A stretch of 64,000 nt of DNA, taken from NCBI GenBank assembly GCA_963747235.1, contig CAVVEU010000025.1:28209-92208 (forward strand), in the 5' to 3' direction. Source of the DNA: an uncultured Candidatus Rokubacteria bacterium. GTDB taxonomy: Bacteria; Methylomirabilota; Methylomirabilia; Rokubacteriales; CSP1-6. The stretch's first letter is position 1. The number at the start of each line of letters is the position of its first letter. This document shows, in pieces, positions 6,012 through 31,676 of the stretch. Under the pieces are notes generated by a model, which saw only the letters and a program-made list of their open reading frames with translations, was not told the origin of the DNA and ran no database searches. The position numbers and the translations under genes were made by a program.

Positions 6012-7095
6012 CTAGCGGAGCTTGAGGGTGGTGAGCGCCAGCAACGCGAGCATGAACGACAGGATCCAGAAGCGGACGATGATCTTGGGCTCCGCCCAGC
6101 CCTTGATCTCGTAGTGATGGTGTAACGGCGCCATCTTGAAGACCCGCTTCCCGGTCAGCTTGAACGAGCCCACCTGGATGATGACCGACGCCGCCTCCAC
6201 CACGTAGATGCCGCCGATGAGCGGCAGCAGGAGCTCCGACTTGGTGAGCACCGCGAGCGTCCCGATGGCCCCGCCCAGCGCCAGCGAGCCCACGTCGCCC
6301 ATGAACACCTGCGCCGGGTAGCTGTTGAACCAGAGGAAGCCGAGCGCCGCGCCCACCAGGGCGCCGCAGAAGATCGTCAGCTCGCCGGTGCCCTTGACGT
6401 TGAGGATGCGCAGGTACTCGGCGGCCCGGAAGTTGCCGGTGAGGTACGCGATCACCGCGAAGGCCCCGCCCGCGGTCACGATCGGGCCGATGGCGAGGCC
6501 GTCGAGCCCGTCGGTCAGGTTCACCGCGTTGGAGGCCCCCACGATCACCAGGATCGCGAAGGGGATCCACAGCCAGCCGAACGTGAGGAGCCAGCCCTTG
6601 AAGAACGGGATCACGACGCTGGTGGTGAAGCCGTCGGCCGGCCACCAGTAGAGAAATCGCCATCAGGGCCCCCACCAGCACGATCTGGGCGCCGAACTTC
6701 TCCTTCGCCGAGATGCCCCGCCGGGTCTTGAGCTTCTTCCAGTCGTCCTTCAGCCCGATCAGGCCCAGGCCCACGGTGGCCAGCATCAGCACCCACATGT
6801 AGCGGTTGCGCAGGTTGGCCCACAGGAGCGTCGACACCAGGATCGCCACCAGGATCCCGATGCCGCCCATGGTGGGCGTGCCCGCCTTGGTCTTCTGGTG
6901 CCGCTCCGGCGTGTCCTCGCGGACCGAGCTCTCCCCGTGCTGCATCTGGCGCAGCCGGTTGATCAGCCACGGCCCCAGCAGGAAGGAGATCACCAGGGCG
7001 GTGACCGTCGCCATCGCGGTCCGGAAGGTGATGTACCGGAACACGTTGAACGCGGTGTTGTACTTCGCGAGCGGCACGAGGAGCTCGTAGAGCAC
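6012..7095 (-). CDS. mraY: Phospho-MurNAc-pentapeptide transferase MraY (frameshift ~6645)
   Basis: [51 protein letters not shown]; GTG start overlaps murF stop. Confidence 0.95.
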
Positions 7096-8486
7096 TAGCC
7101 ACTCACTCCTCCGAAGCGCGCCACGAGCGCGTCCACGACGCGCTCCATGCGCATGCCCCGGGAACCCTTGACGAGCACCGCGTCGCCGGGCGCGAGCCGC
7201 TTGAGCAGCAGCGCCACCGTATCCTCGAACGTGGTCACGTGATGGCTCTCCGCGAGCCCGGCCTGCCGCGCCGCCTCCACCGCGGTCTGCGCCCAGCGCC
7301 CCATCCCGACGAACTCGGCCGCGCCCGACGCGGCGACCGCGCGGCCCATGTCGCGATGCGCGGCCTCGCTGATCTCGCCCAGCTCGAGCATGTCGCCCAG
7401 CACCACCACCCGCCGCCGCGCGTCGGTGGCGGCGCCCAGCGTGGCCAGCGCCGCGCTCACCGAGCTCGGGTTGGCGTTGTAGGTGTCGTCGAGGATGCGC
7501 AGCGCCCCCGCGCGCCGCCAGACGCAGCGGCCCTTGGCCGGGCGCGCGGCCTCGAGCCCGCGGGCGACCTGCTCGAGGGTGAGGCCCAGCGCGAGGCCGA
7601 TCCCGGCCGCGGCGAGCGCGTTGATCACGTTGTGCCGCCCCGCGAAGTGCAGCCGCACCGGCCGCTTGGCGGTGCCGGCGCCGAGCGTGAAGCGCAGCCC
7701 GTCGCCGTCGTCCGCGGCCGGCCCCACCGCGAAGACGTCGGCCCCGGGACGCGTGCCGAAGTAGAGCACCCGCGCCCGGCTCTGCGTGTGCATGGCGAGC
7801 ACCCGCGGGTCGTCGGCGTTGAGCACGACCGCGCCGTCGGGCGGGATCGCGCGCACCAGCGCGCTCTTCTCCTCGGCCACGCCGTCGAGCGAGCCGAAGA
7901 ACTCCATGTGGGCGCTCGAGACCACCGTGACCGCGCCCACCGTGGGCCGGCAGATCGCGGCGAGCGAGGCGATCTCGCCCGGCGTGTTCGCCCCCAGCTC
8001 CAGCGCGAGCGCCTTGTGCTCCGGCCCCAGGCGCAGCAGCGTCAACGGCAATCCCCACTGATTGTTGAAGCTGCCCTCCGGCTTGAGCACCGGGCCGAGC
8101 GCGCCCAGGACCGCCGCCATCATCTCCTTGGTCGTGGTCTTGCCGTTGCTGCCCGTCACCGCGGCCACCGGCACCGTGAAGCGCGCCCGGTGATAGGCGG
8201 CCAGCCGTCCCAGCGCGCGCGTGGTGTCGTCCACCAGGATGGTGGGCACCGAGGGCGGCAGATCATCCGGCAGGTTGTGGACGACCAGGCACGCCGCGCC
8301 CCGCGCCGCCGCGTCGCGCAGGAAGCCGTGGCCGTCGCGGTTCGGGCCGCGGATGGCGAAGAAGGCCTCGCCGATGGCCAGGTGGCGGCTGTCGATGCTG
8401 ACGCCGGTGACGGGCACGCCGAGGTCGCCCGCCACGAGGGCGCCCTGGGTGCCGCGGACCACGTCCTCGATGCTCAGCCCCGCCAC
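7095..8486 (-). CDS. murF: UDP-MurNAc-tripeptide--D-Ala-D-Ala ligase MurF
   Basis: GTG at 8486 with GGGAGGG RBS; SIDSR, TGSNGKTTTKEM, DDTYNANP, LGDMLELG, LVKGSRG. Confidence 0.94.
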   Translation of the reverse strand: MAGLSIEDVVRGTQGALVAGDLGVPVTGVSIDSRHLAIGEAFFAIRGPNRDGHGFLRDAAARGAACLVVHNLPDDLPPSVPTILVDDTTRALGRLAAYHRARFTVPVAAVTGSNGKTTTKEMMAAVLGALGPVLKPEGSFNNQWGLPLTLLRLGPEHKALALELGANTPGEIASLAAICRPTVGAVTVVSSAHMEFFGSLDGVAEEKSALVRAIPPDGAVVLNADDPRVLAMHTQSRARVLYFGTRPGADVFAVGPAADDGDGLRFTLGAGTAKRPVRLHFAGRHNVINALAAAGIGLALGLTLEQVARGLEAARPAKGRCVWRRAGALRILDDTYNANPSSVSAALATLGAATDARRRVVVLGDMLELGEISEAAHRDMGRAVAASGAAEFVGMGRWAQTAVEAARQAGLAESHHVTTFEDTVALLLKRLAPGDAVLVKGSRGMRMERVVDALVARFGGVSG

Positions 8487-10010
8487 GCCTGCCCTCCCGC
8501 TCCCCCGCGCGCCCGCAGCGCGGTCCGCGCCACCTCGCGGTCGTCGAAGTCGTGCGACTCGGTGCCGATGATCTGGTAGGTCTCGTGCCCCTTCCCCGCG
8601 ATCACCACCACGTCGCCCTCGCGCCCCCAGGCGACCGCGGCCTCGATGGCGCGGCGGCGATCGGCCATGGACTCGTGCCGCCCCGCGGCCGCGGCCGGGA
8701 TGCCGGTCTCGATCTCGGCCAGGATCGCCTCGGGCCGCTCGGTGCGCGGGTTGTCGGAGGTCACCCAGGCGAAGTCGCCCAGGCGCGCCGCGATGCCGCC
8801 CATGATCGGGCGCTTGCCGCGGTCGCGGTCGCCGCCGCAGCCGAAGACCACGCCGAGGCGCCCGCCCGGACGCAGCAGCTTGCGCGCCGTCGTGAGCACG
8901 CGCTCCAGCGCGTCGGGCGTGTGCGCGTAGTCCACCACCACCAGGAAGGGCTGGCCGGCTTCCACGCGCTCGAACCGGCCGGGCACCGTCGCCACCCGGG
9001 AGAGCGTCTCGCCGATCCGTCGCGGCTCCATGTCCAGAGCGAGTCCGACGCCGATGGCCCCCAGGAGATTCATCACGTTGTGCTCGCCCACGAGGGGCGA
9101 GACGATCTCGATGGGCCCCTTGGACGACACGACCTCGAGGCGGATGCCGTCCATGCCGGATTCCCAGCGGCGCGGCCGCAGCTAGGGCCTGGCCGTGCAG
9201 GCCGAAGGTGATCGGCCGCACGCGCGGATCGGCGGCCGCCGCGGCCAGCATGGCCGCGCCCGCCGGATCGTCCGTGTTCACCACCGCGGCGCGATAGGGC
9301 TTGCGGCTTCCCGCCAGCAGGGTGAAGAGCCGGGCCTTGGCGTCGCGGTAGGCCTCGAGCGTGCGGTGGAAGTCGAGGTGGTCCTGGGTCAGGTTGGTGA
9401 AGACGGCCACGTCGAACTCGATCCCGTCCACGCGGGAGAGCGCCAGGGCGTGCGAGGAGACCTCCATCGCGGCGCCGCCGACGCCGACGCGCACCATGCG
9501 CGCCAGCAGCGACTGCAGCTCGAGGGCCTCGGGCGTGGTCTGGCTGGCCGTCTCGGCCTGGTCGCCGACGCGATACTGGATCGTGCCGATGACGCCGGTG
9601 GGCCGCCCGCCCGCGCCCAGCAGGGCCTCCACGAGCAGCGACGTGGTGGTCTTGCCGTTCGTGCCGGTGATGGCGACCACGGTGAGCCGCCGCGAGGGAT
9701 GGCCGTGGTAGGCATCCGCCAGCCGCGCGAGGGCCTCGCGCGACGACGGCACGATGATGCGTGGCGTCGCGCTGCCCGGCAGCGGGTCGGCGCCCTCCGC
9801 GACGACCACGGCCGCGCCCCGCCCGACCGCGTCGGCGGCGAAGCGCCGACCGTCCTGCTTGAAGCCGGAGATGGCCACGAAGAGCTCGCCCGGCGCGACT
9901 TTACGAGAATCGTACGCGACACCCGTCACGCGGCCGGGCAGGGTGCCCAGTACCGTCTTGTCCGGCAGCGCCTCGAGCAGCGTGGTGGTGGGCACGGCGG
10001 CGTCGCTCAT
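8474..10010 (-). CDS. murE: UDP-MurNAc-dipeptide--meso-DAP ligase MurE (frameshift ~9183)
   Basis: TGTNGKTT, MEVSSHAL, TNLTQDHLDFH, DYAHTPDAL, FGCGGDRD, DNPR (mDAP specificity), AGKGHE. Confidence 0.94.
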
Positions 10011-10014
10011 GTCC

Positions 10015-12081
10015 TCACGGCTGGAGGCTCGCGGCCAGCGTGGCATGGCCGGCGTGGCCCGCGCGCCCGGCCGGGGGCGCGAGCTGGAGCCGGCACATCG
10101 CGCCCGAGGCGAGCGGGGCGCCGGGCAGCGGCGTCTGGCCGGTCACGACGCCGCGGCCCGTGATCTCGAGGCGCACGTCGAAGGGCGCAAGGGCTTCCAT
10201 GGCCTGGCGGAGCGAGAGGCCGGCCAGGCGCGGCATCACGGCCTGGGCGTCGCCCATCGGGGCGGGCGGCTCCGGAGCCAGGCCGACTGCCAGAGCGGGA
10301 GCGCCGGGCTCCGCGGATGCACCGGCGGCGCGCGGGCCGGCGGGCGTGGAGGCGACGATCTCGCCGCGCACGATCGGCACCGGGCTGCTGTCGCGCGGGG
10401 GCACGTTGAGGTAGCGCAGGGCCTCGCGGCCGATCGCGGCGAACATGGGCGCGGCCGCCTCGCTACCCCACTTCTCGTTCTTGGGCTCGTCGAGCAGGAC
10501 GATCATGGTGAGCCGCGGGTCGTCGGCGGGCACGAACCCCACGAAGGAGAGCACACCGGGCGCGCGCGAGTAGCGCTTGGTCGCCGGGTCCATCTTCTGG
10601 GCGGTGCCGGTCTTGCCCGCCACGTCGTAGCCGGGGATCGCCGCGTGGCGACCGGTCCCGTTGGCCACCACGTTCACCATCATCTCGGTCAGCGTGCGCG
10701 CGGTCTCCGGGCTGATGACCTGGCGCACCGTCTTGGGCTCGAAGGAGCGGATCTCGCGCCCCTGCGCGTCCACCACCGCGCGGATGATCTGCGGCTGCAT
10801 GAGCCGGCCGCCGTTGGCCACCGCGGAGAACGCGGCGATCATCTGCACCGCGGTCACCGAGATCTCCTGGCCGATGGACATGGTGGCGAGCGAGAGGCCC
10901 GACCACTGCGCGGGCGGGCGGAGCTGGCCGCGGCTCTCGCCGGGCAGGCCCAGGTTGGTGGGCGCCCCGAAGCCGAACGCGGTCATGTACTTGTAGTACC
11001 GCTCCTTGCCGATCTGCATGCCGACCTTGATCGAGCCCACGTTGGAGGAGTTCTGGAGCACCTCGGTGAAGGTGAGCCAGCCGTACTTCTTCCAGTCGTG
11101 GATGGTCGCGTTGGCGATCGTGATCGCCCCGTTCTCGCCGAAGATCCGGTCGGTGGGACGGACGACGCCTTCTTCCAGCGCGGAGGCGGCCATGATCACC
11201 TTGAAGGTGGAGCCGGGCTCGAACGGGTCGGTGACCGCGCGGACGCGCCGGTCGTCGTCGGTGGCGGCCGCGAAGGCGTTCGGGTTGTAGGTGGGGCGGA
11301 TCGCCATCGCGAGGATCTCACCGGTGCGCGGGTCCATCGCCACCGCCATCGCCGACTTGGCCCGCGTGCGCCGCCACGCCGCGTCCACTTCCTTCTCGGC
11401 CAGGTACTGCAGCGTGGCGTCGATGGTGAGCATGATCCCCTGCCCCGCCACCGACGGCTTGAGCACGATGGGCGCGCCGGTCACCTCGCGGCCGAGCGCG
11501 TCGCGCTCGACGACCGCGCGGCCCTCGACACCGGCCAGGTGCCCGTCCCACATCTGCTCCATGCCCGCGAGCCCCTTGCCCTCCGCGCCCTCGAAGCCGA
11601 TGAGCTGCGCGGCGAGCTCGCGGTTCGGGTAGAGGCGCAGGCTGTCTTCCACCAGCGTGAGCGAGGGGTCCTTCAGGTCGCGCACCGCGCGCGCCATGTC
11701 CGGGGTGAGGCGGCGCCGCACCGGGGCGAACTTCTTCGACACCGTGAGCTTGCGGGCGATGTCACGCGCGGGCTCGCCCAGGATCGGGGCCAGGCGCGCC
11801 GCGAGACGCCCCGCGTCTTCCACCTTCCCCGGCGCGACGTAGAGGGCGTCGGCGCGGGAGGAGACCGCGAGGGCCTGGCCGCCGCGGTCGAGGATCGGCC
11901 CGCGCTTGGGCCGGAGCGGCACCGTCTTGGCGTGCTGGTTCTCCGCGAGGCGCGCGTACTCGTCGTGCTTCCAGACTTGCAGATAGGCCAGGCGGCCGAG
12001 GATGCCGATGAAGGCGAGGGCCAGGCACGCCGCGAAGATCAGCGTCCGGGTTCTCAGGCCCTCGATGCGGATCTCGGTCAT
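10015..12081 (-). CDS. ftsI: Class B penicillin-binding protein FtsI (PBP3) with C-terminal PASTA-like domain
   Basis: RGPILDR, EPGSTFK (SxxK), SSN, GKTGTAQ. Confidence 0.95.
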   Translation of the reverse strand: MTEIRIEGLRTRTLIFAACLALAFIGILGRLAYLQVWKHDEYARLAENQHAKTVPLRPKRGPILDRGGQALAVSSRADALYVAPGKVEDAGRLAARLAPILGEPARDIARKLTVSKKFAPVRRRLTPDMARAVRDLKDPSLTLVEDSLRLYPNRELAAQLIGFEGAEGKGLAGMEQMWDGHLAGVEGRAVVERDALGREVTGAPIVLKPSVAGQGIMLTIDATLQYLAEKEVDAAWRRTRAKSAMAVAMDPRTGEILAMAIRPTYNPNAFAAATDDDRRVRAVTDPFEPGSTFKVIMAASALEEGVVRPTDRIFGENGAITIANATIHDWKKYGWLTFTEVLQNSSNVGSIKVGMQIGKERYYKYMTAFGFGAPTNLGLPGESRGQLRPPAQWSGLSLATMSIGQEISVTAVQMIAAFSAVANGGRLMQPQIIRAVVDAQGREIRSFEPKTVRQVISPETARTLTEMMVNVVANGTGRHAAIPGYDVAGKTGTAQKMDPATKRYSRAPGVLSFVGFVPADDPRLTMIVLLDEPKNEKWGSEAAAPMFAAIGREALRYLNVPPRDSSPVPIVRGEIVASTPAGPRAAGASAEPGAPALAVGLAPEPPAPMGDAQAVMPRLAGLSLRQAMEALAPFDVRLEITGRGVVTGQTPLPGAPLASGAMCRLQLAPPAGRAGHAGHATLAASLQP

Positions 12082-12090
12082 GCGGTCCCG

Positions 12091-12552
12091 CTAGCGCACT
12101 CCGACGTCACGCGGTACGGGGCGCTCGGCCACCACCGACGGCCGGTCGAGCGCGGTCGCGCCCCGGCCGCCCGGGACGAACTCGCGGGCGAGGCGAACCT
12201 GGTCGCGCGCGGGCGCCACCATGCCGAGCTCGGTGCGGGCCTTGCCCTCGATGCGCGCGAGCGACTTGAGCGTGGCCATCTCCACCCGCAGCCGGCGATT
12301 GAGCTCCTCGGCCTCGGTCCGGCTGCCGCGGAGCGCGTCCAGCCGGTAGGACAGACGCACCTGCTGCACGCGCAGCCCCACCACGCCCAGGATCAGCACC
12401 ACGGCCAGGCCCGCGCCGACCACCGCGGTGGCCATCGAGCGGAGCCGGCGCCGGTCGTTCTGGCGATGACGCCGCACCGCCTCCGGCTGCCGGGCGCGGT
12501 GCTCGCGCCCCCACGCGGACTGGGGCACGCTGCGGGCCGCCCGGGCGCTCAT
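12091..12552 (-). CDS. ftsL: Cell division protein FtsL
   Basis: TM helix then coiled coil (LRVEMATLKSLARIEGKARTELGM) between rsmH and ftsI; ATG overlaps rsmH stop. Confidence 0.85.
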   Translation of the reverse strand: MSARAARSVPQSAWGREHRARQPEAVRRHRQNDRRRLRSMATAVVGAGLAVVLILGVVGLRVQQVRLSYRLDALRGSRTEAEELNRRLRVEMATLKSLARIEGKARTELGMVAPARDQVRLAREFVPGGRGATALDRPSVVAERPVPRDVGVR

Positions 12553-19181: not shown

Positions 19182-19209
19182 GGTTCGAGCCGGAGTCGCG
19201 GGGGTCTCG

Positions 19210-20823
19210 TTACTTGTCCCGCCACACGTCGGCCATGCGGCCGAAGTTGTAGATGTTGTCGTGCGGGACCAGCCCCTTCACGTGCGGCCAGAACGTGAAG
19301 TAGTCGAGCCTCCAGTCGAGGATCGGGCGCGCCGCGTCCTCCTCGATCTTGCGCTGCATCCCCGCGAGCAGCAGCAGCCGCTTCTGCGGGTTGAGCTCCT
19401 GGGACTGTTGCTCGACCAGCTTCATCACTTCCTCGCTGCAGTACTGGCTGTAGTTCCGCGGCGAGCCGCAGGCGTAGTTCTCGTAGTAGTTGGCGTCCGG
19501 CTCGTCGACGCCGAGGCCGGTGAGGTTGGCCCCGATCTGGTAGTCGCCGCGGGTCGCCATCGCGTGCCACTGCGCGGTCTCCACCTGCTTGAGGCTGGCC
19601 TCGATGCCGACCTGCTTCAGCTCGTTGATGACGAAGGAGGCCATGTCCACGTAGATCGGGATGGCCCGGGTGGCCATTTCCACGCGCAGCGGATTCTGCG
19701 GCGTGATGCCCGCCTCGGCCAGCAGCTTCCGGGCGCGCGCCTTCATGTCCTCCGGCTTGCCGTATCCGGGCAGGCCGCCCAGGTCCTTCTCGGGCAGCCC
19801 CCAGACGCCGTACGGCTTCGGCTGCATCGAGGCGCCCAGCACCGCGCCGCCCTGGTGCACGGCCTGGATGAGCGCGCGCCGGTCGATCGCGTAGCTGACC
19901 GCCTGCCGCACCTTGGGATTGTCGAACGGCGCCTTCTTCGTGTTCATGATGATGTTGTCGCTCACCGCCTGCGGCCACCGGCGTGATCACGAGCTGCGGG
20001 ACGGCCTTCTTGAGCTGCTCGGCCGCGGTCTTGGTGGTCTCACCCGGGAACGAGACGTCGAGCTGCCCCGACTGCAGCGCCGCGATCCGGGTGCCGCGCT
20101 CCTTGATGATCACGTAGCGGAGGCTGTCGAGGTAGGGACGCCCCTTCACGAAGTAGTCCGGGTTCTTCACGTAGTCCACGAACTCGCCCTTCCGCCACTC
20201 CTTCACCTTGAAGGGACCGGTGCCGATGCAGCCCGTGCGATACGTGGCGGGATTGACGTGGGCCGCGTAGATGGGCGTGTAGCCGGAGGCCAGCATGTTC
20301 AGCAGGCCCGGCTGCGGGCGCTTGAGGCGGAAGACCACCGTGTGCGGATCCGCCGCCTCGACGGCCTCGAGGTTCGCGTACCAGTCCTTGCGCGGGATTG
20401 ATCCGGAGCTTCGCGGTGGCTTCGGGCGCCTCGCGCAGCATGTCGAAGGTGAACTTCACGTCCTTCGACGTGAACGGCTGGCCGTCGTGCCACTTGACGT
20501 TCTTGCGCAGGAAGAAGACCAGGTTGCGGTAGTTGTCCTGCCAGGACCATTTCTCGGCGAGCTCGCCCACGATGTTCTCGGGGGTCTCGGGCCGCTTCAG
20601 ACTGGTCGAAGACCACGAGGTTGTTGAAGCACGGCATCGACGGGAACGAGGTGGAGATCGTCGAGGACTCGTGCACCGCGAATCCCGGCGACAGGTCCTC
20701 CCGGAGCATGATGTTCAGATGCCCGCCCGACTTCGGCGTCTGCGCCGCGGCGAGCGTGACGCCCAGGCTGAGGACCAGCAGGGCGAGAACTGGCACCAGG
20801 ACCTTACAGCGGGAACGCCTCAT
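19210..20823 (-). CDS. ABC transporter substrate-binding protein, family 5 (about 3 frameshifts)
   Basis: Signal peptide; ELAEKWS, LRKNVKWHDGQPFT, GTGPFK, PFDNPKVRQA spread over four ORF pieces. Confidence 0.9.
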
Positions 20824-20891
20824 TGTGTCCCTCCCATTCGCGAGAACGCCGGGGCGGTCGCGGGTGAAGCCGGAGTCGGTAAGTGCTGAAG

Positions 20892-20976: not shown

Positions 20977-21489
20977 CTAGACCGCGGCGTGCGGCTCCCG
21001 GAGGCCCCGCCGCACGTCGCGGCGCGTGAGCAGCTCCTCGAGGGCGATCGTGCGGGCCCCGCCCCGCCGCCGCAGCTCGGGCCGCGCCAGGATCGGGCGC
21101 TGGCGGATGCGCGAGGCCAGCCCGTTCCGCACCGCGCGGTCGGCGTAGAGGCGCCGGAGCGCGCGACACATGAGTGGCCGGCCCCGGTTGTACCCGAAGC
21201 GCCGCTTGTACTCGTCGGCCGTCAACGCGTGGCTCCGCAGGTGGGTGTTCGTGAGCTGACGGAAGACACCGCCACAGACGAGGCAGTGGATCGCGTCCTC
21301 CTGCACGGCCTGGCGCGGATCGGCGCGCAGTCCGGACAGTGTGCGACGACTCCCGGTCGATCCCGCGAAGAGGCTCGCGCGCCGAACCGCCGTCGCGGCG
21401 CGGACCCGATCGCCGTGGATTGCCGGGCCGCCATTCCTGGGCGTGCGCAGCCGAAGCGGAGCGTAAGAGGACGTAGCGGTCGCGGGCAT
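20977..21489 (-). CDS. Ros/MucR-family zinc-finger DNA-binding protein
   Basis: IHCLVCGGVFRQLTNTHLRSHALTADEYKRRFGY (C-x2-C-x10-H-x3-H plus TxxEYxxxF/W), then PLM; AGGAGG RBS before ATG 21489. Confidence 0.85.
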   Translation of the reverse strand: MPATATSSYAPLRLRTPRNGGPAIHGDRVRAATAVRRASLFAGSTGSRRTLSGLRADPRQAVQEDAIHCLVCGGVFRQLTNTHLRSHALTADEYKRRFGYNRGRPLMCRALRRLYADRAVRNGLASRIRQRPILARPELRRRGGARTIALEELLTRRDVRRGLREPHAAV

Positions 21490-21549
21490 GTCGGCCTCCT
21501 TCGAGCGATGAGGAACAGGAACGAAGAGAAGAAACATGTCCCTACACAT

Positions 21550-21565
21550 CGCAAACCAAATGCCA
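21550..21565 (-). promoter_or_regulatory. sigma54 (-24/-12) promoter driving the MucR-like gene
   Basis: TGGCAT-TTGGT-TTGCG, exact GG-N10-GC spacing. Confidence 0.8.
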
Positions 21566-21581
21566 CTAAAATAGCTAATAT

Positions 21582-21594
21582 AATCAGTATCTTG
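21582..21594 (+). promoter_or_regulatory. Putative IHF binding site
   Basis: AATCAGTATCTTG matches WATCARNNNNTTR, with an AT-rich 5' flank, between promoter and UAS. Confidence 0.65.
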
Positions 21595-21624
21595 TGTAAA
21601 TAAGGTATTAACGGTCGATGTTCG

Positions 21625-21657
21625 ACTGGTAAAAATCTTACCAGTGACTTGACCAGT
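21625..21657. promoter_or_regulatory. Putative upstream activator sequence for the sigma54 activator
   Basis: Perfect palindrome ACTGGTAA-N5-TTACCAGT (21625-21645) plus a third half-site TGACCAGT (21650-21657), ~95 bp upstream of the predicted TSS. Confidence 0.65.
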
Positions 21658-21686
21658 AAGGGCTTCTAGGTAATCCTTACCGGGCG

Positions 21687-24600
21687 ATGGATCCCTGGAG
21701 CGAGCTCCTGGGTCGGAGCACCGCGATGGAAGCCGTACGCGAGACCGTCCGGCGGCTGCCCGGGCGCCAGCACGTCGGCCGGCGGCTGCCGGCGATCCTC
21801 CTGCAAGGCGAGACCGGGACGGGCAAGGGTCTCGTCGCCCGCCTCATCCACCGCCTGGGGCCGCGCGCCACCGGCGAGTTCGTGGACGTCAACTGCGCGG
21901 CAATTCCCGAGACACTGCTCGAGGCCGAGCTGTTCGGCTTCGAGCGTGGCGCATTCACCGACGCCCGCAAGGCCAAGCCCGGCCTCTTCCAGACCGCGCA
22001 TCACGGCAGCATCTTCCTGGACGAGATCGGATCGACCCCCGAGGCGCTACAGGCGAAGCTGCTGACCGTCATCGAGGAGCGCGTGGTGCGACGGCTCGGC
22101 GGCACGCGTCCCGAGCCCGCGGACGCCTGGATCATCAGCGCGACGAACACGGATCTCCTCGGGAGCGTCCGCGAGCGCCGATTCCGGGAGGACCTCTACC
22201 ATCGGCTCGCGGTGCTGACGCTGCGCCTGCCTCCGCTCCGGGAGCGCGGCCAGGACGTCCTGTTCCTCGCCGAGCGCTTCCTCGTGCGCGTCTGCGCGGA
22301 CTACGGCCTGCCGGTGAAGATCCTGGCCGCCGATGCGCGCGATCGGCTGATGGCCTATCCGTGGCCCGGCAACGTGCGCGAGCTGTCGAACGTGATCGAG
22401 CGGGTCGCGCTCCTGACCGAGGAGACCGTGATCACGGCCGAGCACCTGGGGCTGGGCGACGCAAGCTCGGCGCCGGGACCCGTGCCGGCCGACGCGGGCA
22501 GCGCCGCGGCTCCGCCCCCGATCTCGTTCGGGGACGCCATGCGCGCGCACCTGCGCGCCACACTCGATCAGACCGGCTGGAACATTTCTCGCACCGCCGC
22601 CATCCTCAACATCTCCCGCAATACCGTGCGCGCGCGCATGGAGAAGACTGGGGCTGCGCGAAGGCACCGCGGTCGCGGTGAAGCGCGACGCGCGCGCGCC
22701 GAGCGGCGCCCGCCCGGCCCCTCCGCCGCCGCCGAACGGGTCCGCATCCGGGCCGCCGTCGCGCCCCGCGCTCCCCACGGTCCGCTGGGAGCGCCGGCCC
22801 ATCGCTCTGATGCGCGTGGCGCTCGTGGTGCCGGAGACCGGCGACGTCCTCTCGGACGCCGCGCGCGCGCTCGAGACGCTGATCGAGAAGGTCCAGAGCT
22901 TCGGCGGACGCGTCGAGGCGCTCGGGCAGCGCGCCCTGGACGCCGCCTTCGGCGTGGAGCCCATCGAGGACGCGCCGCGGCGCGCGGCGCACGCCGCGAT
23001 GGCGATGCAGCGGGCCGTCGAGCGGATCCGCGGAGACTCCCCCGCCCCGCTCGCGACGCGGATCGCCATTCACGCGGCCCAGGTCCTCGTGGCGCAGGCC
23101 GGCCGCATGATCCAGATCGACCAGGAGGCGAAGGAGCAGGGCGCCTTCGTGCTCGATGACCTGATCGCGGCCGCCGAGCCCGGCGGCATCCTCGCCAGCC
23201 CGGCCGCCGGCGCGCTGCTCGAGCGCCGGTTCGAGCTGATCCCCCTCGACGGGACGGACGAGTCTCCGACCGCGTTCCGCCTCGTCGGGCGCGAAGGGCC
23301 GGGGCTGAGCGCGGCCGGGCGCATGGCGAGCTTCGTCGGCCGGCATCAGGAGATGGCGGTGCTGCACAGCCGGCTGCTCGCCGCCCTCCGTGGTCGGGGA
23401 CAGCTCGTCAGCATCGTCGGGGACGCCGGGATCGGGAAGTCCCGCCTGCTCTACGAGTTCAGCCAGAGCGTGAGCGCCGAGCAGGCGACCTACATCGAGG
23501 GACGCTGCCTGTCCTACGGGAGCACGATCCCCTACCTGCCGGTGCTCGACCTGATTCGCGGGCTCTGCCACATCACCGAGGCCGACGACGCGGCGGGCGC
23601 GGGCGAGAAGATCCGGCAGACGCTCGGGCGGGCGGGCATGGACGCGTCCAAGCTCACTCCTCACGTGCTCGATCTCCTGGGATACCGAGACGGCATCGAG
23701 GGGCTCGATCTCGTTCCACCCGACGCGATCAAGGTCGGCATCTCGGAGGCCCTCCGCCAGATCACGCTGGGCGCCAGCCATCGCCAGCCCCTGCTCGTCG
23801 TGATCGAGGATCTCCACTGGATCGACCAGGCGTCGGAGGAGCTGCTCGCGTCCATGGTGGACGGGCTGCCCGGCGCGGCGGTGCTCTTCGTCGTGACGTA
23901 CCGCCCCGGGTACGAGCCGCCGTGGGCCAACCGGTCGTTCGCCACCCAGCTCTCGCTGCCTCCGCTGTCGAACGAGGACAGCCTCACGGTCACGCGCTCG
24001 GTGCTGCCCGCGGTGGCGCTGCCTCACGCGGTCGCCGAGGTGATCCTGAGCCGCGCGGAGGGCAATCCCTTCTTCCTGGAGGAGCTCGCGCTGTCCATCC
24101 AGGATCGCGGCGGCCTGGCCGGCGATCTCGCGGTGCCCGACACGGTGCAGGGCGTCCTGCTGAGCCGGATCGGACACCTCGCCGAGACCGAGCAGGCCCT
24201 GCTCCAGTCCGCGGCGGTCATCGGCAAGGACGTCCCGCTTCCGGTCCTGGCCGCGGTGACCGAGCTCCCCGAGGAGCCGCTCGCCCAGGCGCTCCGCCAC
24301 CTGAGCGCGGCGGAGTTCCTCTACGAGGTCAGCAGCTTCCCGGAGGTCAAGTACCGCTTCCGGCACGCGCTCACCCACGAGGTCGCCTACGAGAGCCTCC
24401 GGCCGGAGCGCCGCCGGCAGCTCCACGCCCGCATCGTCCTCGCCATCGAGGCCAGTCACTCCGACCGCCTGCTCGAGGACGTCGGGCGGCTCGCCCATCA
24501 CGCGACGCGAGGGGAGCTCTGGGAGAAGGCGGTGGCGTACGCGCGTCAGGCCGGCGCCAAGGCCGCCGCGCGCTCCGCCCACCTGCAGGCGGTCGCGTAT

Positions 24601-25806
24601 CTCGACCAGGCGCTCGACGCCCTCGCGCATCTGCCCGAGGATCGCGCGCAGGTCGAGCAGGCCATCGATGTGCGGCTCGACCTCCGCAACTCGCTGCACC
24701 CGCTGGGAGACCCCGAGCGCATCCTCGCGCGGCTGCGGGAGGCCGAAGCGCTCGCCCGGACGATCGACGATCCTCGACGGCTCGCCCGGGTCTTCTCGTT
24801 CATGACGCAGTACTTCCGGCTGATCGGACATCTCGATCTCGCGGTGGAATCGGCGGAGCGCGCCCTCGCGCTCGCCGACCGGATGCGGGACACGCCCTTC
24901 TGGATCGTCGCCAACACGTTCCTGGGCACCGCCTACGATGCCCAGGGCGAGTACCGCAAGGCGGCCGACGTCCTCCGGAAGAGCGTGGAGGCCTTGCCCG
25001 GCATCTCGATCGGCCAGGACGTGCGCGTCGCCGGCCTCGTCTCGGTCTTCTCGCGCATCTATCTGGTCTACTGCCTCGCCGACATGGGTGACTTCCGCGA
25101 GGGGCTCGCGTATGGCGACGAGGGCACGCGGCTCGCCGAGGCCGCCGATGACGCCTACAGCCTGATCTTCGCCTCGTGCGGCATCGGCACGCTCCACCTC
25201 CTGAAGGGCGATCTGGAGCCGGCGATCCACACTCTGGAGCGCGCGCTCACCCTCTGCCGGACGTTGACGGTGCCGGTGGCGCTGCCCCTGATCGCGTGCG
25301 CGCTGGGCGCCGCCTACTCGCTGTCGGGGCGCTCGCGCGACGCGATCGCCCTGCTGGAGGAGGGAAACCGGGAAGGCCTCGCGATCGGACGGATGGGCGG
25401 GCACTCGCTGGTCGTCGTGCGCCTGGGCGAGGCCTATCTCCGCGCCGGCCGCCTCGACGAGGCCGACGAGACGGCCCGACGGGCGCTGCTGATGGCCCGC
25501 GAGAAGAGTGAGCGCGGGCACGAAGCCTACGCCCTGCACCTCCTGGGCGAGGTGGTGGCGCGACGGACACCCGGCGACGCGGGCGCCGCCGAGGCCGCGT
25601 TCCGACAGGCCTCGGCCCTCGCCGAGGAGCTCTCGATGCGCCCGCTCCTCGCGCATTGCCACGTGAGCCGCGCCCGGCTCGAGTGCCGGGCGGGCCGCAC
25701 CGCGAGCGCCCGTCAGCTCTTCGGCGCGGCCACCGCGGCCTTCCGCGAGCTGGAGATGCCCTTCTGGCTCGAGCGCGCGGAGGCCGAGGCCCGCTCCCTA
25801 GCCTGA
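21687..25806 (+). CDS. sigma54 enhancer-binding AAA+/Fis-HTH fused to degenerate class III cyclase, STAND ATPase and TPR repeats (one extra base at ~22647)
   Basis: GETGTGKG, ELFGFERGAFTDA, FLDEIG, FREDLYHRL, WPGNVREL, HTH; then cyclase-like GGRVE..AFG..EDAPRRAAHAA, GDAGIGKS, VIEDLHWID, GNPFFLEE, YRFRHAL, helical repeats. Deleting one base joins ORFs 21687 and 22678 into 1372 aa. Confidence 0.88.
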
Positions 25807-26010
25807 CGTCCCCTTCCCGCGCGTCTCCACCCGCACCTCGACGAGGTCCAGGCCGCACGCCCGGGCCAGCCGCCTGATCTCCAGGCGAACCGCCTCCAGC
25901 GTGTGGGAGCCGATGGGGCCGTCCAGCTCGATGCTACCGACGACGGCGGCGTCCGGCCTTGGCGGCCCGCTTCTTGGCGGCGGCGGCGTGCGCCTTCCAC
26001 TTCTTTTCAA
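25798..26010 (-). CDS. Small hypothetical protein (start uncertain)
   Basis: Protein-like segment SIELDGPIGSHTLEAVRLEIRRLARACGLDLVEVRVE fills the gap between the basic ORF and the activator stop; could be a frameshifted continuation of the upstream ORF. Confidence 0.4.
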   Translation of the reverse strand: MKRSGRRTPPPPRSGPPRPDAAVVGSIELDGPIGSHTLEAVRLEIRRLARACGLDLVEVRVETRGKGTSG

Positions 26011-26131
26011 TGGCCCTCACTCCCTTCTTGAACTGCGCGAGGAGCGCCCGCGTCTGGGCGCTCTTGGGCGTGGCCGCGATCCGGATCGTGGTACGGCCCT
26101 TGCTCGTCGTCTGGCTCACCTGGATCATCAT
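25934..26131 (-). CDS. 65-aa Lys/Arg/Ala-rich basic protein
   Basis: MMIQVSQTTSKGRTTIRIAATPKSAQTRALLAQFKKGVRAIEKKWKAHAAAAKKRAAKAGRRRRR; AAG-rich codons unlike shadow ORFs; follows the ATP-grasp gene. Confidence 0.6.
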   Translation of the reverse strand: MMIQVSQTTSKGRTTIRIAATPKSAQTRALLAQFKKGVRAIEKKWKAHAAAAKKRAAKAGRRRRR

Positions 26132-26186
26132 GGCGTCGTGCCGTGCGTCGGCTCCTCTGGGTGTCGGTTGCCGCGTTGCGCCCGCC

Positions 26187-27260
26187 TTAGCGGCGGGCGT
26201 CCTGCACTCCGTCGAAGAACTCATCGGCGTGAAACACGCGCGGGGCCGCGTCGAGGTCCCGCAGCATGTAGTGATCATCGGTCCCCTCGTACTCCTCGTG
26301 GAGATCCACCGACTCGCCCCGGGCGAGATCGAGGTACACCGCGGTCATGTTGTGCTTGCCGGTCAGGTCGAGGAGATTGGTGCTGGACGTGAAGCGGCCC
26401 GCGTTGATCTCGGTGACGCGCGGAACCCCGCCCGAGTCCTCCTTCAGGTCCACCGCGAACACGCCCGAGGCCTTGCGATCCACCGCGCGGATCGCCCGGA
26501 CCGCGATCTCGAGCACGCCCGGCTCGTGCACGGTCTTGGTGAGCGCGCCCACCGCCGACACCTCGCTCGGCTGGCTGGCGCTGCCGAGGTAGGACAGCCG
26601 CTCGTAGGTCTTCGCGAGCGCCAGGCGGCCGTCCTTCCACACGCTCTGGCAGCCGAAATCGCGGCCCGGCAGGTACTCGGACAGGGTGAACGCGGAGACC
26701 GGCACCCCGCGCATGTCGCGCCAGTACGCGATCCAGCTCCGCGCCTGCTCCGGCCCCGCGACCGGCGCCGCGCCCCGCGAGCCCGCGCCCGCGCGGATGC
26801 GACACCACGCGCGGGCCGGATTGCCCAGGCGCGCGAAGATGCGGTCGAGCCGCCGCAGGTCCGTCACCCGATACGTCGCGGGCGCGGGAACGCCGCGCGC
26901 CCGCAGCCATTCGGTGAGCGCGTACTTGTCGCCGCAGCGCTCCACCGTGGCGGCCCGGGGAAGGAAGAGGCGCCCGCCGAGCGCGCCCCGCGCGCGCGAG
27001 AGCGCGGCGACGTCGCCGTCGCTGGCCGGGATGACGAGGTCGATCCGCTCCGTCTCCACGATCCGGCGCAGCGAGCGGCGCCAGCCCGGATGCGCGAGCG
27101 GCGGGAGGAGGTAGTTGCGGTCCGCGGTGGAGTTCTTGAGGATGAACTGGTCATCGTGGCAGCCCACGATGGTGAGCGAAGCATTCCCCGCCCGGAGGCT
27201 CCGCACGAGGTTGCCGCTCGCCCCGCTGCCCGCGCTCGTAACGAGCAACCGCGCGTTCAT
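26187..27260 (-). CDS. ATP-grasp ligase (CarB/PylC-like, single domain)
   Basis: LLVTSAG, IDLVIPASD, CGDKY, GAGSRG, SEYLPG, VDLKED..PRVTEINAGRF. Confidence 0.85.
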   Translation of the reverse strand: MNARLLVTSAGSGASGNLVRSLRAGNASLTIVGCHDDQFILKNSTADRNYLLPPLAHPGWRRSLRRIVETERIDLVIPASDGDVAALSRARGALGGRLFLPRAATVERCGDKYALTEWLRARGVPAPATYRVTDLRRLDRIFARLGNPARAWCRIRAGAGSRGAAPVAGPEQARSWIAYWRDMRGVPVSAFTLSEYLPGRDFGCQSVWKDGRLALAKTYERLSYLGSASQPSEVSAVGALTKTVHEPGVLEIAVRAIRAVDRKASGVFAVDLKEDSGGVPRVTEINAGRFTSSTNLLDLTGKHNMTAVYLDLARGESVDLHEEYEGTDDHYMLRDLDAAPRVFHADEFFDGVQDARR

Positions 27261-27268
27261 CCGCGCGG

Positions 27269-27297
27269 AGCCTAGACGATATCCGGCGCCATCGCAA
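27269..27297 (-). promoter_or_regulatory. sigma70-type promoter, probably leaderless, for the ATP-grasp gene
   Basis: TTGCGA-N17-TAGGCT, then 8 nt to ATG, no SD. Confidence 0.6.
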
Positions 27298-27383
27298 GTT
27301 TCGCGCGGGGCCCGCGACGCCCGCTGTGCTTACTGGGTCCGCCCACTTGCGCGAATCACTTCACGTGCTTCAGGGCCCGCCGG

Positions 27384-27418
27384 AAAAGAAAACGGGCCGG
27401 GTCCCAGGACCCGGCCCG
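27384..27418 (-). terminator. Rho-independent terminator after sodC
   Basis: GC hairpin CGGGCCGGGTCC/GGACCCGGCCCG followed by TTTTCTTTT on the minus strand. Confidence 0.8.
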
Positions 27419-27442
27419 CGTGGTCTTCGCGGCGGCCCGCGA

Positions 27443-27964: not shown

Positions 27965-27982
27965 CGTTGAGTGCCCTCCCGT

Positions 27983-30900
27983 TCAGTTGAGCTGCGCAAT
28001 GAGCTGCTTGGCCTTCTCCCGGAACCGGGCCACGCCTTCGAGCTTGATGTGCTCGTAGCCGCGGATCTCGTCGGGCAGCTCGGCCAGGGTCACCGCCGCG
28101 CCGTGGGTGACCGGGCTGAGCCGCACGAGCGCGGTCTCGATGAGCTGGCGGTACTCGCCGATCAGCTCCCGCTCCACCTTCCGCACCTCCGCGTAGCCGA
28201 AGGGATCGAACGCGGTGCCCCGCAGCCCCTTCATGGCCTTCAATATCTGGAAGGCGGGGGCGAACCAGGCCCCGAGCCGGATCTTCTTCTTGAGGCCCAG
28301 CGCGCGGAGCAGCGGCGGGTGCAGGTGCCAGTAGGTCCGGATCTTCTGGCCGAACTTCGCCTGGAGCTGCGCGGCCATCGCCGCGTCGAGATGCAGGCGC
28401 GCCACCTCGTACTCGTCCTTGTAGGCCATGAGCTTGTGGAGATGCCGCGCGACGGATTCCGCGAGCCCCACGCTGCCCGGGGCGCGCTCCGCCTCCACCT
28501 GGGCCACGCGGTGGACGAAGTCCACGTACTCGCCCGCGTAGGCCGCGTTCTGGTACGCGATCAGCTCGGGCACCCGGATCTCGAGCAGACGCCGCAGCTC
28601 CCCCGACGCCTCCACGCGATCCACCAGCGCGCGCGCCTCCGCGCTCAGCACGCGCGGCGCCTCGACGGCCTGCGCGGTGGCCTGGGCGACCGCCGCCTCC
28701 ACCTGCTTGCGGTCCACCACCGCCATCCGGCCCCACCGGAAGGCGAGCACGTTCATGTCCACCGAGACGCCGTTGATGCGGATGGCGCGCTCGATGGCCG
28801 CGGCCGAGATCGGCAGCGCGCCCGCCTGGTAGGCCGCCCCGAGCATGATCGGGTTCACCGCCATGTGGTCCCCGAAGAGCGCCTCCGCGATGGCCTGGGC
28901 GTCGAGGTAGACGTTCGGATCCTTCCGCGTCACCCGGTCGATGCTCATCAGCATGCTGCTGAGCTCGGGGAAGTGCACCGCGGTGTCCACCACCATCTGG
29001 CCGGTGGGAATCTGGCTCGTGGACACCACCGCGATCGTGCGGCCCGATTCGGCCTTGTCCAGGTTGACCGGATCGGTGGCCACCAGGAGGTCGAAGCCCA
29101 GGTAGAGATCGGAGGCCCCCGCGGAGACCTTGTTGGCGCGCTCGATCGGCTCGGAGCCGATCTTGAGGTCGGAGACCACCGGCCCGCCCTTCTGGCTGAG
29201 CCCGGTCTGGTCGAGCCCGCGCACGTGCCGGCCGTCGAGCATGGCCGCGGTGCCGAGGATCTGGTTCATGGTGACGACGCCGGTGCCGCCGATGCCCATC
29301 ATGTGGAGCGCGAAGCCCTCGCTCGGCACCTTCAGCGCGGGCTCGGGCAGCTCGGCCTCGAGCGGGGTCACCTTCCGCTCCCGTTTGGGCGCCGTCCCGG
29401 CCCCCTCGATGGTGAGGAACGACGGGCAGTCGCCGAGCAGGCACGAGTAGTCCTTGTTGCAGGAGGACTGGTGGATCGCGGTCTTCCGCCCGAACTCGGT
29501 GTCGATCGGCTGCACCGACAGGCAGTTCGACTTCTTGCCGCAGTCGCCGCACCCCTCGCACACGCGCTCGTTGATGAAGACGCGGGTCATCGGGTCGATC
29601 ATCTTGCCGCGCTTGCGCAGCCGCCGCTTCTCCGCCGCGCAGTGCTGGTCGTGGATCAGCACGGTGACGCCGCTGATGGCCGCGAGCAGCGACTGCGCCT
29701 CCAGCAGCCGGTCGCGATGCCAGACCTCCGCGTTGCCCGCGATCGAGACCCCCGAGTACTTGGCGGGATCGTCGCTCGTGATGATGATGCGCTTGACGCC
29801 CTCGGCCTCGAGGCGCCGGCTGAGCGCGGGGATGGGCAGGGCCCCCGCCGCGTTCTGGCCGCCGGTCATCGCGACCGCGCCGTTGTAGAGGATCTTGTAG
29901 GTGATGTTCACGCCGGAGGCCACCGCGTAGTTCAGCGCGAGGCCGCCGGAGTGGAAGAACGTCCCGTCGCCGATGTTCTGGAAGAGGTGCGGCGTCTCGG
30001 TGAACGGCGCGATGCCGACCCACTGCGCGCCCTCCGCGCCCATGTGGGTGACCCCGATGATGCCGCGGTCCATCCCCATCGCCATGCCGTGGCAGCCGAT
30101 GCCCGCGGCGGCCACGCTGCCCTCGGGCACCACGGTGGAGCGGTTGTGCGGGCAGCCCGAGCAGAAGAAGGCGGAGCGGGCCAGGGTCAGCGTCTTGGGC
30201 CGGCGCTTGAGCTCGTCGAGGTGCTGGATGCGCGCCTCCACCGAGTCGATCTTGACGCGACGGGCGAGGCGCCGGGCGATGGCCCGCGCGATGCAGGTCG
30301 GAGTCGAGCTCGCCGACCGGCGACAGCAGCGGCCGGTCCTCCTCGTCGAGCTTGCCCACCACCTGCGGCCGGTCCGCCTGGCCGTAGAGCACGTCCTTGC
30401 AGAACATCTCGACGAACGAGCGCTTCTCCTCGACGACGAGGATCTCCTGCAGGCCGCGCCCGAACTCGCGCACGATGCGCGGCTCCATCGGGAACAGCAT
30501 GCCGATCTTGAGGATGCGGATGCCGTAGCGGCGCAGCGCGCCGTCGTCGAGCCCGAGCTCGGCGAGGGCCTGGCGGACGTCGTAGTAGGTCTTGCCGCTC
30601 GTGACGATGCCGAACCACGCGTTCGGCGACGGCACCGTGATGCGGTTGAGCTTGTTCTCGTACGCGTAGCGCCGGGCCAGCTCGAGGCGCGCGCCGTGAA
30701 GCGTGCGCTCCATGTCGAGGCCGTAGGGCGGGATCAGGTTCACGTTGATCTGGTGCTGGAAGGGCTTGCCGTCCAGCTCGACCACCGGGATGATCGGGTT
30801 CACGCGATCCGGATCCACCTCGGCGGTGCCCGCCTCGTCCGCCACGTTCGTGACGATCTTGGCGCCCACCCAGAGCCCGGACGTGCGCGAGAGCATGAAG

Positions 30901-31464
30901 CCGTGCAGGCCGAGATCGAGGATCTCCTGCACGTTGCCCGGGTAGATCGTGGGCATCAGCGCGTCGTAGAGCGCGACCTCGGAGTGGCTCGGCAAGCGTC
31001 GACGATTTGGACAGCGGATCGTCCCCGGCCAGCGCGAGCACGCCGCCGTTCTTGCCCACGCCCGCGTAGTTGGCGTGCTTGAAGACGTCGCCGGTGCGGT
31101 CCACGCCCGGCGCCTTGCCGTACCACATGCCGAGCACGCCGTCGTACCGGGGGTTCGGGAAGAGCCCCGCCATCTGGCTGCCGTACACCGCGGTGGCGCC
31201 CAGGTCCTCGTTGAGGCCGGAGGAGAACACCACGTCGTGCGCGCGGAGCAGCGTGGTCATGCGCTCGAGCGTCTGGTCGAGCCCGCCGAGGGGCGAGCCG
31301 CGGTAGCCCGAGATGAAGGTCGCCGTCTTGAGGCCTCGCCGGATGTCGGCGCGATGCTGATCGAGGGGGAGCCGGACCAGCGCCTGTATGCCGGACAGGT
31401 ACACGCGTCCGCGCTCCTGGGTGTACTTGTCCTCGAGCGAAAACTCTCCGGTCGGTGTGGTCAT
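27983..31464 (-). CDS. Indolepyruvate:ferredoxin oxidoreductase family protein, fused alpha/beta (frameshifts ~30993, ~30295)
   Basis: SGYRGSPLGG, WYGKAPGVDR, FCSGCPHN, GDGTFFHSG, CEGCGDC, GLSQKGG, AYKDEYEVARL. Confidence 0.93.
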
Positions 31465-31510
31465 GAGCTCCCCTTGGGGGTGGCGACGTTAGACATCAAA
31501 CGACGGCCAT

Positions 31511-31539
31511 ATAGTAGTCGGGAAAGGCATTTCGAGCAA
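31511..31539 (-). promoter_or_regulatory. sigma70-type promoter for IOR-sodC
   Basis: TTGCTC-N17-TACTAT. Confidence 0.6.
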
Positions 31540-31676
31540 GCAAGGCGGACGGCGAACGCCCGATTCACGGTTGACCGCAAGTCCGAAACGGTTGTCCGCG
31601 GACTGGGGGAGTGCGGGGGCCATTTCTGGGCCCCCGCATTCAATAGAGCTTGAAGAACTAGACGGTTGTCCGCCGG

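Follow-up and report, generated by a model that had tools for sequence, protein, structure and literature searches.

Linkage of a STAND-TPR sensor, fused to a sigma-54 activator in Rokubacteria, with an ATP-grasp and mini-protein cassette

The window analysed here is a stretch of 64,000 nucleotides from an uncultured Candidatus Rokubacteria bacterium (contig CAVVEU010000025.1). It contains a giant activator gene, in which a sigma-54 activator of the bacterial enhancer-binding protein (bEBP) type is followed by a cyclase-like domain, a STAND ATPase and a tetratricopeptide repeat (TPR) region. A MucR/Ros-type zinc-finger gene is divergent from it, and an ATP-grasp ligase gene and two mini-protein genes, A and B, converge on its 3' end. 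G+C is about 70% across the region, the names borne by close homologues point to Rokubacteria/Methylomirabilota, and real frames were told apart by third-position GC. All the parts listed in an earlier note on this DNA were found in place by domain matches, charge count and third-position GC, and are as follows.

20977..21489, minus strand: MucR/Ros-type zinc-finger gene, 170 residues from the ATG at 21489 (longest open reading frame, 20977..21549).
21550..21565, minus strand: sigma-54 −24/−12 promoter TGGCATTTGGTTTGCG, from consensus match and conserved position.
21582..21594, plus strand: site AATCAGTATCTTG, like that of integration host factor (IHF), between enhancer and promoter; read by eye.
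21625..21682, strand unassigned: presumed enhancer (upstream activating sequence), palindromes 5-60 nucleotides before the activator ATG.
21687..22646, plus strand: N-terminal output part of the activator, with sigma-54 AAA+ (residues 8-179), lid and HTH_8 (residues 287-320).
22647, plus strand: single extra base breaking the reading frame, from alignment with five orthologues and with contigs of soil runs.
22795..23322, plus strand: degenerate class III cyclase homology domain (pseudocyclase), from alignment to live cyclase domains.
23332..23889, plus strand: STAND nucleotide-binding oligomerisation module (AAA_16; PF13191, E 1e-24).
24775..25806, plus strand: C-terminal TPR sensor region (TPR_12, TPR_MalT), reaching the stop codon.
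about 25798..25944, minus strand: mini-protein B, about 48 residues from GTG, its stop overlapping the activator stop.
25934..26131, minus strand: mini-protein A, 65 residues, net charge +19.
26187..27260, minus strand: ATP-grasp ligase, 357 residues, first gene of its operon.
27392..27419, minus strand: intrinsic terminator, 3' of the upstream Cu/Zn superoxide dismutase gene.

The MucR-type gene and the activator frame are separated by an AT-rich spacer of 197 bp. As a terminator follows the superoxide dismutase gene, the ATP-grasp ligase, mini-protein A and mini-protein B form a transcription unit of their own, referred to below as the cassette.

Profile searches with the activator gave Sigma54_activat (PF00158; E 6e-57), AAA_lid_14 and HTH_8 in the output part, and AAA_16 (E 1e-24), TPR_12 (E 1.9e-22) and TPR_MalT (PF17874; E 8.4e-12) in the STAND part. 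The order is that of a STAND NTPase, with an N-terminal effector (here the bEBP), a P-loop nucleotide-binding oligomerisation domain (NOD) and a C-terminal repeat sensor. The activator is one of a large Rokubacteria family: fused forms of 1355-1380 residues predominate among the homologues listed, which bears out the fused bEBP-pseudocyclase-STAND-TPR architecture of the earlier note, and 46 of 47 distinct relatives share its GAFTDA loop and its Walker motifs (A, GETGTGK; B, IFLDEI). The TPR region is the most divergent portion among relatives (mean distance 0.55). Between the helix-turn-helix (HTH) and AAA_16, the match to Guanylate_cyc (PF00211) was weak (E 0.19; 11.7 bits, cut-off 21.9). 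Nevertheless, this part is 25-27% identical to the live cyclase domains of the cyclase-type proteins described below, and the alignment with these relatives shows that it has kept neither the metal-binding motifs FAD and GDG nor AARME. The domain thus reads as a cyclase homologue, predicted to be catalytically dead, and the term 'pseudocyclase' was apt. The window genome gave 16 bEBP-type AAA+ matches and 15 STAND-TPR match segments (about 13 genes); only two fused activators are among them, that of the window and C40:303429-307511, which is without a cassette and without a clear sigma-54 element.

In the printed window the bEBP frame (from 21687) and the STAND frame (to 25806) are offset by one base, and hence the domains of the giant gene stand as the earlier note had them but the single open reading frame does not. 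On DNA alignment the base at 22647 is surplus relative to the five same-genus orthologues, which are open over 1377-1382 residues. It is likewise omitted in the contigs (97-98% alike) of all three soil-metagenome runs that cover the position (X1-X3); a fourth run (X4) does not span it. Relative to intact orthologues, at least seven frame changes were counted in three genes across 16 kb: three in the indolepyruvate oxidoreductase gene, three in the peptide-binding protein gene and one in the activator. The first two genes lie at 27980..31550 and 19200..20830, with about three changes apiece. Because of this number of changes the assembly looks indel-prone throughout, and other split genes in the window are to be read cautiously. 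Because five orthologues and three of three covering runs are without the base, it is most likely an assembly error, and the giant gene would be intact in nature. That the gene is truly a pseudogene and the system dead in this genome would agree with the base being present in the window as printed, but is very improbable in view of the clustered frame changes in conserved genes, the soil-run contigs and the coding composition, which is kept in both halves of the gene (third-position GC of 0.93 in the STAND frame).

Linkage of sensor and cassette was examined from both sides. Starting from the sensor, a convergent downstream ATP-grasp gene was found for four of five orthologues, 13 of 15 next relatives (45-52% identical) and nine of 20 more distant fused paralogues, or 26/40 overall. 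As an unbiased set, 46 loci were collected from the side of the ATP-grasp gene by a pattern scan of genomes from 185,579 species. A convergent STAND gene was present in 43 of these; two loci end at a contig edge, and at L110 no STAND gene lies within 2984 nucleotides of the ATP-grasp gene. Among all loci fetched, a pooled set that includes loci picked via the sensor, 81 distinct ATP-grasp genes were counted, 68 of them with a STAND gene within 4 kb and nine less than 900 nucleotides from a contig end. Hidden Markov models (HMMs) built from alignments A1 (mini-protein A) and A2 (mini-protein B) and run on 107 loci detected A in 69 and B in 79. About 19 of the 46 loci belong to Alphaproteobacteria, mostly Bradyrhizobium, and ten are from cultured Bradyrhizobium isolates; cultured carriers include Bradyrhizobium sp. 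AS23.2, NAS80.1 and LjRoot220 and Bradyrhizobium genosp. A BDV5028. The ATP-grasp gene and both small open reading frames are thus linked to a STAND-TPR gene across two phyla. Within the phylum of the window, the ATP-grasp gene was found in 58 of 151 sampled genomes, mostly in single copy; this tally takes in the unpublished genomes G058 and G101. At the syntenic locus L035 (genome G033; STAND part 81% identical) mini-protein B is kept, but the ATP-grasp gene is lost along with most of mini-protein A, a natural partial deletion of the cassette. L085:8007-10081 carries two tandem ATP-grasp paralogues with a sigma-54-like element before each; mini-protein B lies 1.4 kb off, and there is no adjacent STAND gene.

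The STAND partners of the cassette were of two types. All of the roughly 19 alphaproteobacterial partners, and many of those in Rokubacteria, match the activator only from residue 52-65 on. The partner at L071, the sole such locus scanned with Pfam, is a protein of about 1120 residues with a zinc ribbon (DZR), a live cyclase, AAA_16 and TPR, and the Bradyrhizobium partners are frames of 1117-1121 residues in which the live cyclase motifs are kept. No bEBP module was found in the cyclase-type partners of the cassette. The ATP-grasp tree intermingles bEBP-type and cyclase-type partners and places the Bradyrhizobium clade (100/100 support) next to that of the window; since some cyclase labels on this tree are contig truncations, the number of switches is overestimated.

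The fused form is preceded by a sigma-54 control region. The element TGGCATTTGGTTTGCG lies about 60 nucleotides upstream of the MucR-type ATG and 121 nucleotides from the activator ATG. The sigma-54 consensus matches the window at 10 places, where chance alone would give 17, and the significance of TGGCATTTGGTTTGCG therefore comes from its position and conservation and not from the count. We scored 47 non-duplicate activator upstream regions, requiring GG and GC plus six or more of the other seven consensus positions. An element on the divergent strand was present in 36 of the 47, nearly always 104-132 nucleotides from the activator ATG, and one on the same strand in only four, in agreement with the divergent control region described before. 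The gene for sigma-54, rpoN, was found in the window genome on contig C8 (210 bits). The palindromes of the presumed enhancer are ACTGGTAA-N5-TTACCAGT, TTGACCAGTAAGG and GGTAA-TCC-TTACC. Two heptamers, TGGTCAA and CTTGACC, come back upstream of the relatives, either one in 23-26 of 37 cases; half-sites of the TGGTCA/TGACCA type, which take the form TGGTAA/TTACCA in the window, lie between promoter and activator start. The window site AATCAGTATCTTG was called with the IHF consensus WATCAANNNNTTR, and strings similar to it were seen by eye at the equivalent place in many relatives. Genes of a peptide ABC transporter were rejected as a part of the system; in other genera they face the activator and do not lie along the sigma-54 transcript.

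The protein behind this promoter in the window matches PF05443 (E 1.5e-14; 54.5 bits against a cut-off of 25.4) at profile positions 53-122 of 123. As positions 1-52, the N-terminal oligomerisation half, are unaligned, a nucleoid-protein role of the MucR-like protein is unsupported. AGGAGG precedes the ATG at 21489, a more likely start than that of the longest open reading frame, and orthologues 79-85% identical occupy the equivalent position. The gene is the presumed sigma-54 target in the genus of the window. Another MucR-like zinc-finger gene, 64% identical over 74 residues, lies elsewhere in the genome (C27:44915-45136). Among 46 distinct bEBP-type loci (49 rows less three duplicates), a MucR-like gene was on the divergent side in 14, and one or two proteins of 160-195 residues, paralogous to each other and unrelated to MucR (here T1/T2), in 22. 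Two loci carry both kinds of gene and 12 carry neither; two of these 12 offer less than 800 nucleotides of upstream sequence. For T1/T2 there was no match in Pfam or NCBIfam, and the ESM Atlas gave solely their own unnamed clusters. The MucR-like gene was also missing from the cyclase-type Bradyrhizobium loci. Of the conserved linkage for which the earlier note had proposed a survey, that to the ATP-grasp gene (43/46 loci found through that gene) and to the basic open reading frame was confirmed, but MucR did not hold as a constant member (14/46 bEBP-type loci). Because of this inconstancy, and its absence from the cyclase-type loci, MucR is a lineage-specific output and the core of the system is the sensor plus the cassette; the system has at least two outputs, one of them the sigma-54/MucR branch.

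We tentatively favour, with somewhat less than even confidence, a reading in which the cassette supplies the input to a sensor resembling the NOD-like receptors (NLRs), the output domain is interchangeable, and the bEBP form opens the divergent promoter. As input, the ATP-grasp operon would provide either both mini-proteins, which the enzyme might ligate or extend, or a small amide that the enzyme produces, and the TPR domain of the STAND receptor would read this input. The STAND module would then oligomerise and gather the bEBP domains on the palindromic enhancer beside the activator's own start, the dead cyclase domain possibly being retained as a spacer or dimeriser. With the help of IHF-type bending, the assembled bEBP would open the divergent −24/−12 promoter, which in the genus of the window would drive the MucR-type zinc-finger gene. 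The direction of signalling, from cassette to sensor, is what we infer, as are binding, oligomerisation and the chemistry of the ligase.

The structure model of the ATP-grasp enzyme, predicted from an 88-row alignment (pLDDT, the predicted local distance difference test score, 92.5), is a compact three-domain ATP-grasp; a first model from 12 sequences (pLDDT 52.8) was discarded. Compared with solved folds, the model matched 2pn1, biotin carboxylase, PylC and PurD at Z 25-29 over 288-339 residues; 2pn1 reached Z 28.9 and PylC Z 27.5, and the top folds, L-amino-acid ligases included, differ by about three Z units at most. Residues E284 and N286 hardly vary, and invariant columns fall within the EYLPGR block; these presumably correspond to the Mg-binding and hinge motifs usual in the superfamily. 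The match to Pfam ATP-grasp_3 was under the cut-off, as were those to NCBIfam TIGR02144 (31 bits, cut-off 275.6) and rimK_fam (17.6, cut-off 143.4), and no graspetide model of NCBIfam was among the matches. The passages on graspetides in PMC8939145 do not describe this gene neighbourhood.

Mini-protein A has 20 K/R and one acidic residue (E) by count, and its third-position GC is 0.90-0.97. Its homologues are net positive in 56 of 58 distinct sequences (median +16), and the Bradyrhizobium copies are 50-60% identical to that of the window. Mini-protein B carries the motif G-x-LD..AEAL.LEIRRLA, with third-position GC of 0.87-0.97, and belongs to a family of near neutral charge. The C-terminal tails of the mini-proteins are not conserved. 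Neither A nor B had a match in Pfam or NCBIfam, and in the ESM Atlas they fell only in their own unnamed clusters; profile searches of the PDB with A, B and X431 (a further protein, described below) gave nothing significant, the best being SpoIIAA residues 9-29 for B (E 0.003). Homology between A and B was not shown, the hhalign probability being just 51%. An A-B complex predicted from alignments A1 and A2, in a run without controls, scored 0.29 against a mark of 0.32 and speaks neither for nor against a complex. At L114:8130-8471, in an alphaproteobacterial metagenome-assembled genome (MAG), A and B are one continuous open reading frame, either fused in nature or joined by an indel of a long-read MAG; a real fusion would argue that A and B act together.

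These data bear on a small-molecule version, in which the ATP-grasp enzyme makes a dipeptide-like amide that is the ligand of the TPR domain and the mini-proteins serve, for example, as a chaperone or inhibitor of the sensor. L-Amino-acid ligases (RizA, BL00235, YwfE/BacD) and PylC are among the closest folds (Z 25-27.5), and the STAND regulators MalT and GutR bind small molecules. We consider this version unlikely, since both mini-proteins are linked as tightly as the ATP-grasp gene itself and the nearest solved relatives by sequence are of the LysX type (3vpd, E 1e-7; 1uc8, E 4e-6), which act on a small carrier protein.

The upstream regions of the cassette operon bear on the direction of signalling. 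At the same threshold (score of 6 or more), a sigma-54-like element was found in just two of 84, both belonging to the atypical locus L085; as so few reach the threshold, the cassette does not appear to be a sigma-54 target, and it is probably input rather than target. The reverse direction, in which the STAND-TPR protein would control or scaffold the cassette proteins as effectors and the transcriptional or cyclic-nucleotide output would be a parallel branch, draws on the fact that linkage indicates no direction and that TPR domains are general protein-binding scaffolds. It is nonetheless improbable, given a cassette without a sigma-54 promoter and the general plan of STAND proteins, in which C-terminal repeats sense and the N-terminus is the effector (MalT, AfsR, Apaf-1, Avs).

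Divergence of the cassette follows that of the sensor. Over 31 loci, pairwise divergence of the ATP-grasp protein correlated with that of TPR (r 0.88), NOD (0.77) and bEBP (0.71); the partial correlation was 0.70 for TPR given NOD and 0.30 for NOD given TPR. In the mosaic locus L121, identity to the window is 80% for bEBP, 67% for NOD and 37% for TPR, with 57% for the ATP-grasp protein. At the site between the superoxide dismutase and MucR genes, the STAND protein is 40-89% identical while the superoxide dismutase is 83-97% identical. In Bradyrhizobium L107 and L104 (about 7000-12400) the module lies in DNA of 0.58-0.60 G+C; the flanks in L104 have 0.64-0.68, and this difference suggests that the Bradyrhizobium module is an acquired island. 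The favoured reading may be extended to an NLR-like receptor switched by an endogenous mini-protein ligand, modified or joined by the ATP-grasp enzyme and read by a co-diversifying TPR domain; the sensing unit would be plugged into a sigma-54 or a cyclic-nucleotide output, and allele-like replacement would give strain-specific signal-receptor types. We regard this extension as possible but rather doubtful.

The same variability could belong to a conflict or immunity module built around an NLR-like receptor for an invader, with effector, toxin or immunity roles for the ATP-grasp enzyme, the very basic mini-protein and a variable metalloprotease; the hypervariable sensor and allele replacement would then reflect an arms race. 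The spread of STAND identity beside a uniform superoxide dismutase, the locally GC-poor DNA around the Bradyrhizobium copies and the presence of related cassettes in two phyla all fit such a module. We find it a rather improbable one, because PADLOC-DB 2.0 gave no family for the ATP-grasp protein, either mini-protein, X431 or MucR and just a weak TPR match for the STAND protein (E 5.7e-4), because a transcription activator and a cyclase, not nucleases or pore formers, serve as outputs, and because the ATP-grasp gene is mostly single-copy and housekeeping genes flank the locus in the genus of the window.

Several observations weigh against the reading that we favour, with the cassette as input to the sensor. 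The TPR-coding 3' end abuts the cassette, and for this reason co-transfer of one DNA block may explain the co-divergence as well as co-adaptation does. Fourteen of the 40 sampled fused activators are without the cassette, one of them at a contig end, and since several cassette-less activators retain the sigma-54 promoter and T1/T2, this type of sensor can work without it. Conversely, four of the 81 ATP-grasp genes, in three loci (L085 twice, L089 and L110), have no STAND gene nearby. The sigma-54 contact loop of the activator is GAFTDA; the canonical form in bEBPs is GAFTGA, and the Thr is kept while the fifth residue departs from it. The activator gene is frameshifted as printed in this assembly, and the predicted fold of the ATP-grasp enzyme does not discriminate between a protein and a small-molecule substrate.

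Other features were noted around the cassette. At 27261..27300 on the minus strand, a block CTTGCGAT..N..TCTAGGCTCC is kept in same-genus orthologues about 10 nucleotides before the ATP-grasp ATG, and may be a promoter giving an almost leaderless mRNA, although it was not among the promoters returned by the consensus scan. A sigma-70 promoter before the ATP-grasp gene (TTGCGA-17-TAGGCT by eye, conserved in orthologues) is not claimed, since the consensus scan did not return it. In many loci a variable extra protein with HExxH, X431 (400-430 residues), is encoded directly upstream of the ATP-grasp gene; Pfam and NCBIfam scans gave it merely a sub-threshold Peptidase_M4 match (E 0.0073). At L040, L057, L066, L068 and L090 a 300-residue protein with a hydrophobic N-terminus and HExxHxxxxxH, which reads as a secreted metzincin-type protease, lies between the ATP-grasp gene and mini-protein A. 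The window carries neither of these proteins.

By domain tests the activator belongs to both the bEBP and the STAND families, and it appears new in arrangement: its sensor follows the HTH on the C-terminal side, and one chain holds two ATPase modules. The usual view of sigma-54 activators places their control in an N-terminal domain or in trans. In this protein some 1040 residues of NLR-type machinery come after the DNA-binding domain, which suggests that induced oligomerisation of STAND is used to assemble the bEBP ring. The earlier note knew of no described pathway with this composition, and our literature search, with supplements outside its scope, likewise found no description of the bEBP-STAND fusion or of the four-gene module. 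There is a real chance that the link from cassette to sensor is a new signalling principle. The occurrence of sensor and cassette with a live cyclase in cultured Bradyrhizobium makes the unit modular, common to two phyla and genetically testable. It offers a first way into the function of three uncharacterised families, the ATP-grasp clade and the two mini-proteins, and may shed light on the numerous cyclase-AAA_16-TPR proteins in soil bacteria, which have no ligand known to us.

Among known systems, MalT, GutR and AfsR are cited as non-immune STAND regulators in a passage of PMC13581612. The activator shares with them a P-loop oligomerisation module, C-terminal TPR-like repeats and a joined DNA-binding output. 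Their outputs are LuxR-, SARP- or similar sigma-70-type domains, in contrast to the sigma-54 bEBP AAA+, HTH_8 and dead cyclase of the activator; to our knowledge, no ATP-grasp and mini-protein partner has been described for them. With bEBPs of the NtrC, PspF and NorR class the activator has in common Sigma54_activat, Walker A and B, HTH_8, a divergent −24/−12 promoter, palindromes and an IHF-like site. Unlike them, it is without an N-terminal regulatory domain, and since a sensor of about 1040 residues follows the HTH, control would be exerted from the C-terminal end. The class III cyclase-AAA_16-TPR architecture is known from surveys of Rhizobiales and Actinobacteria. These proteins are the direct relatives of the activator, 36-44% identical from residue 65 on and with the same adjoining cassette, but in the window the cyclase motifs are lost and a bEBP-HTH module takes the place of the N-terminal zinc ribbon.

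For the cassette, the nearest parallels are LysX-LysW and RimK-S6, in which an ATP-grasp gene likewise adjoins a gene for a very small protein; LysX and RimK ligate onto the C-terminus of that protein. By sequence no solved relative is nearer than LysX, but the match is weak (E 1e-7) and the folds of PylC, 2pn1, biotin carboxylase and PurD rank equal or higher; an acidic C-terminus like the one conserved in LysW and S6 is also missing from the mini-proteins. Finally, the divergent gene product shares with Ros/MucR proteins the C-terminal zinc-finger half (PF05443), and a CxxC...HxxxH pattern is readable in its sequence. It differs from them in an Arg/Ala/Pro-rich N-terminus, in the unmatched oligomerisation half and in the position of its gene behind a sigma-54 promoter.

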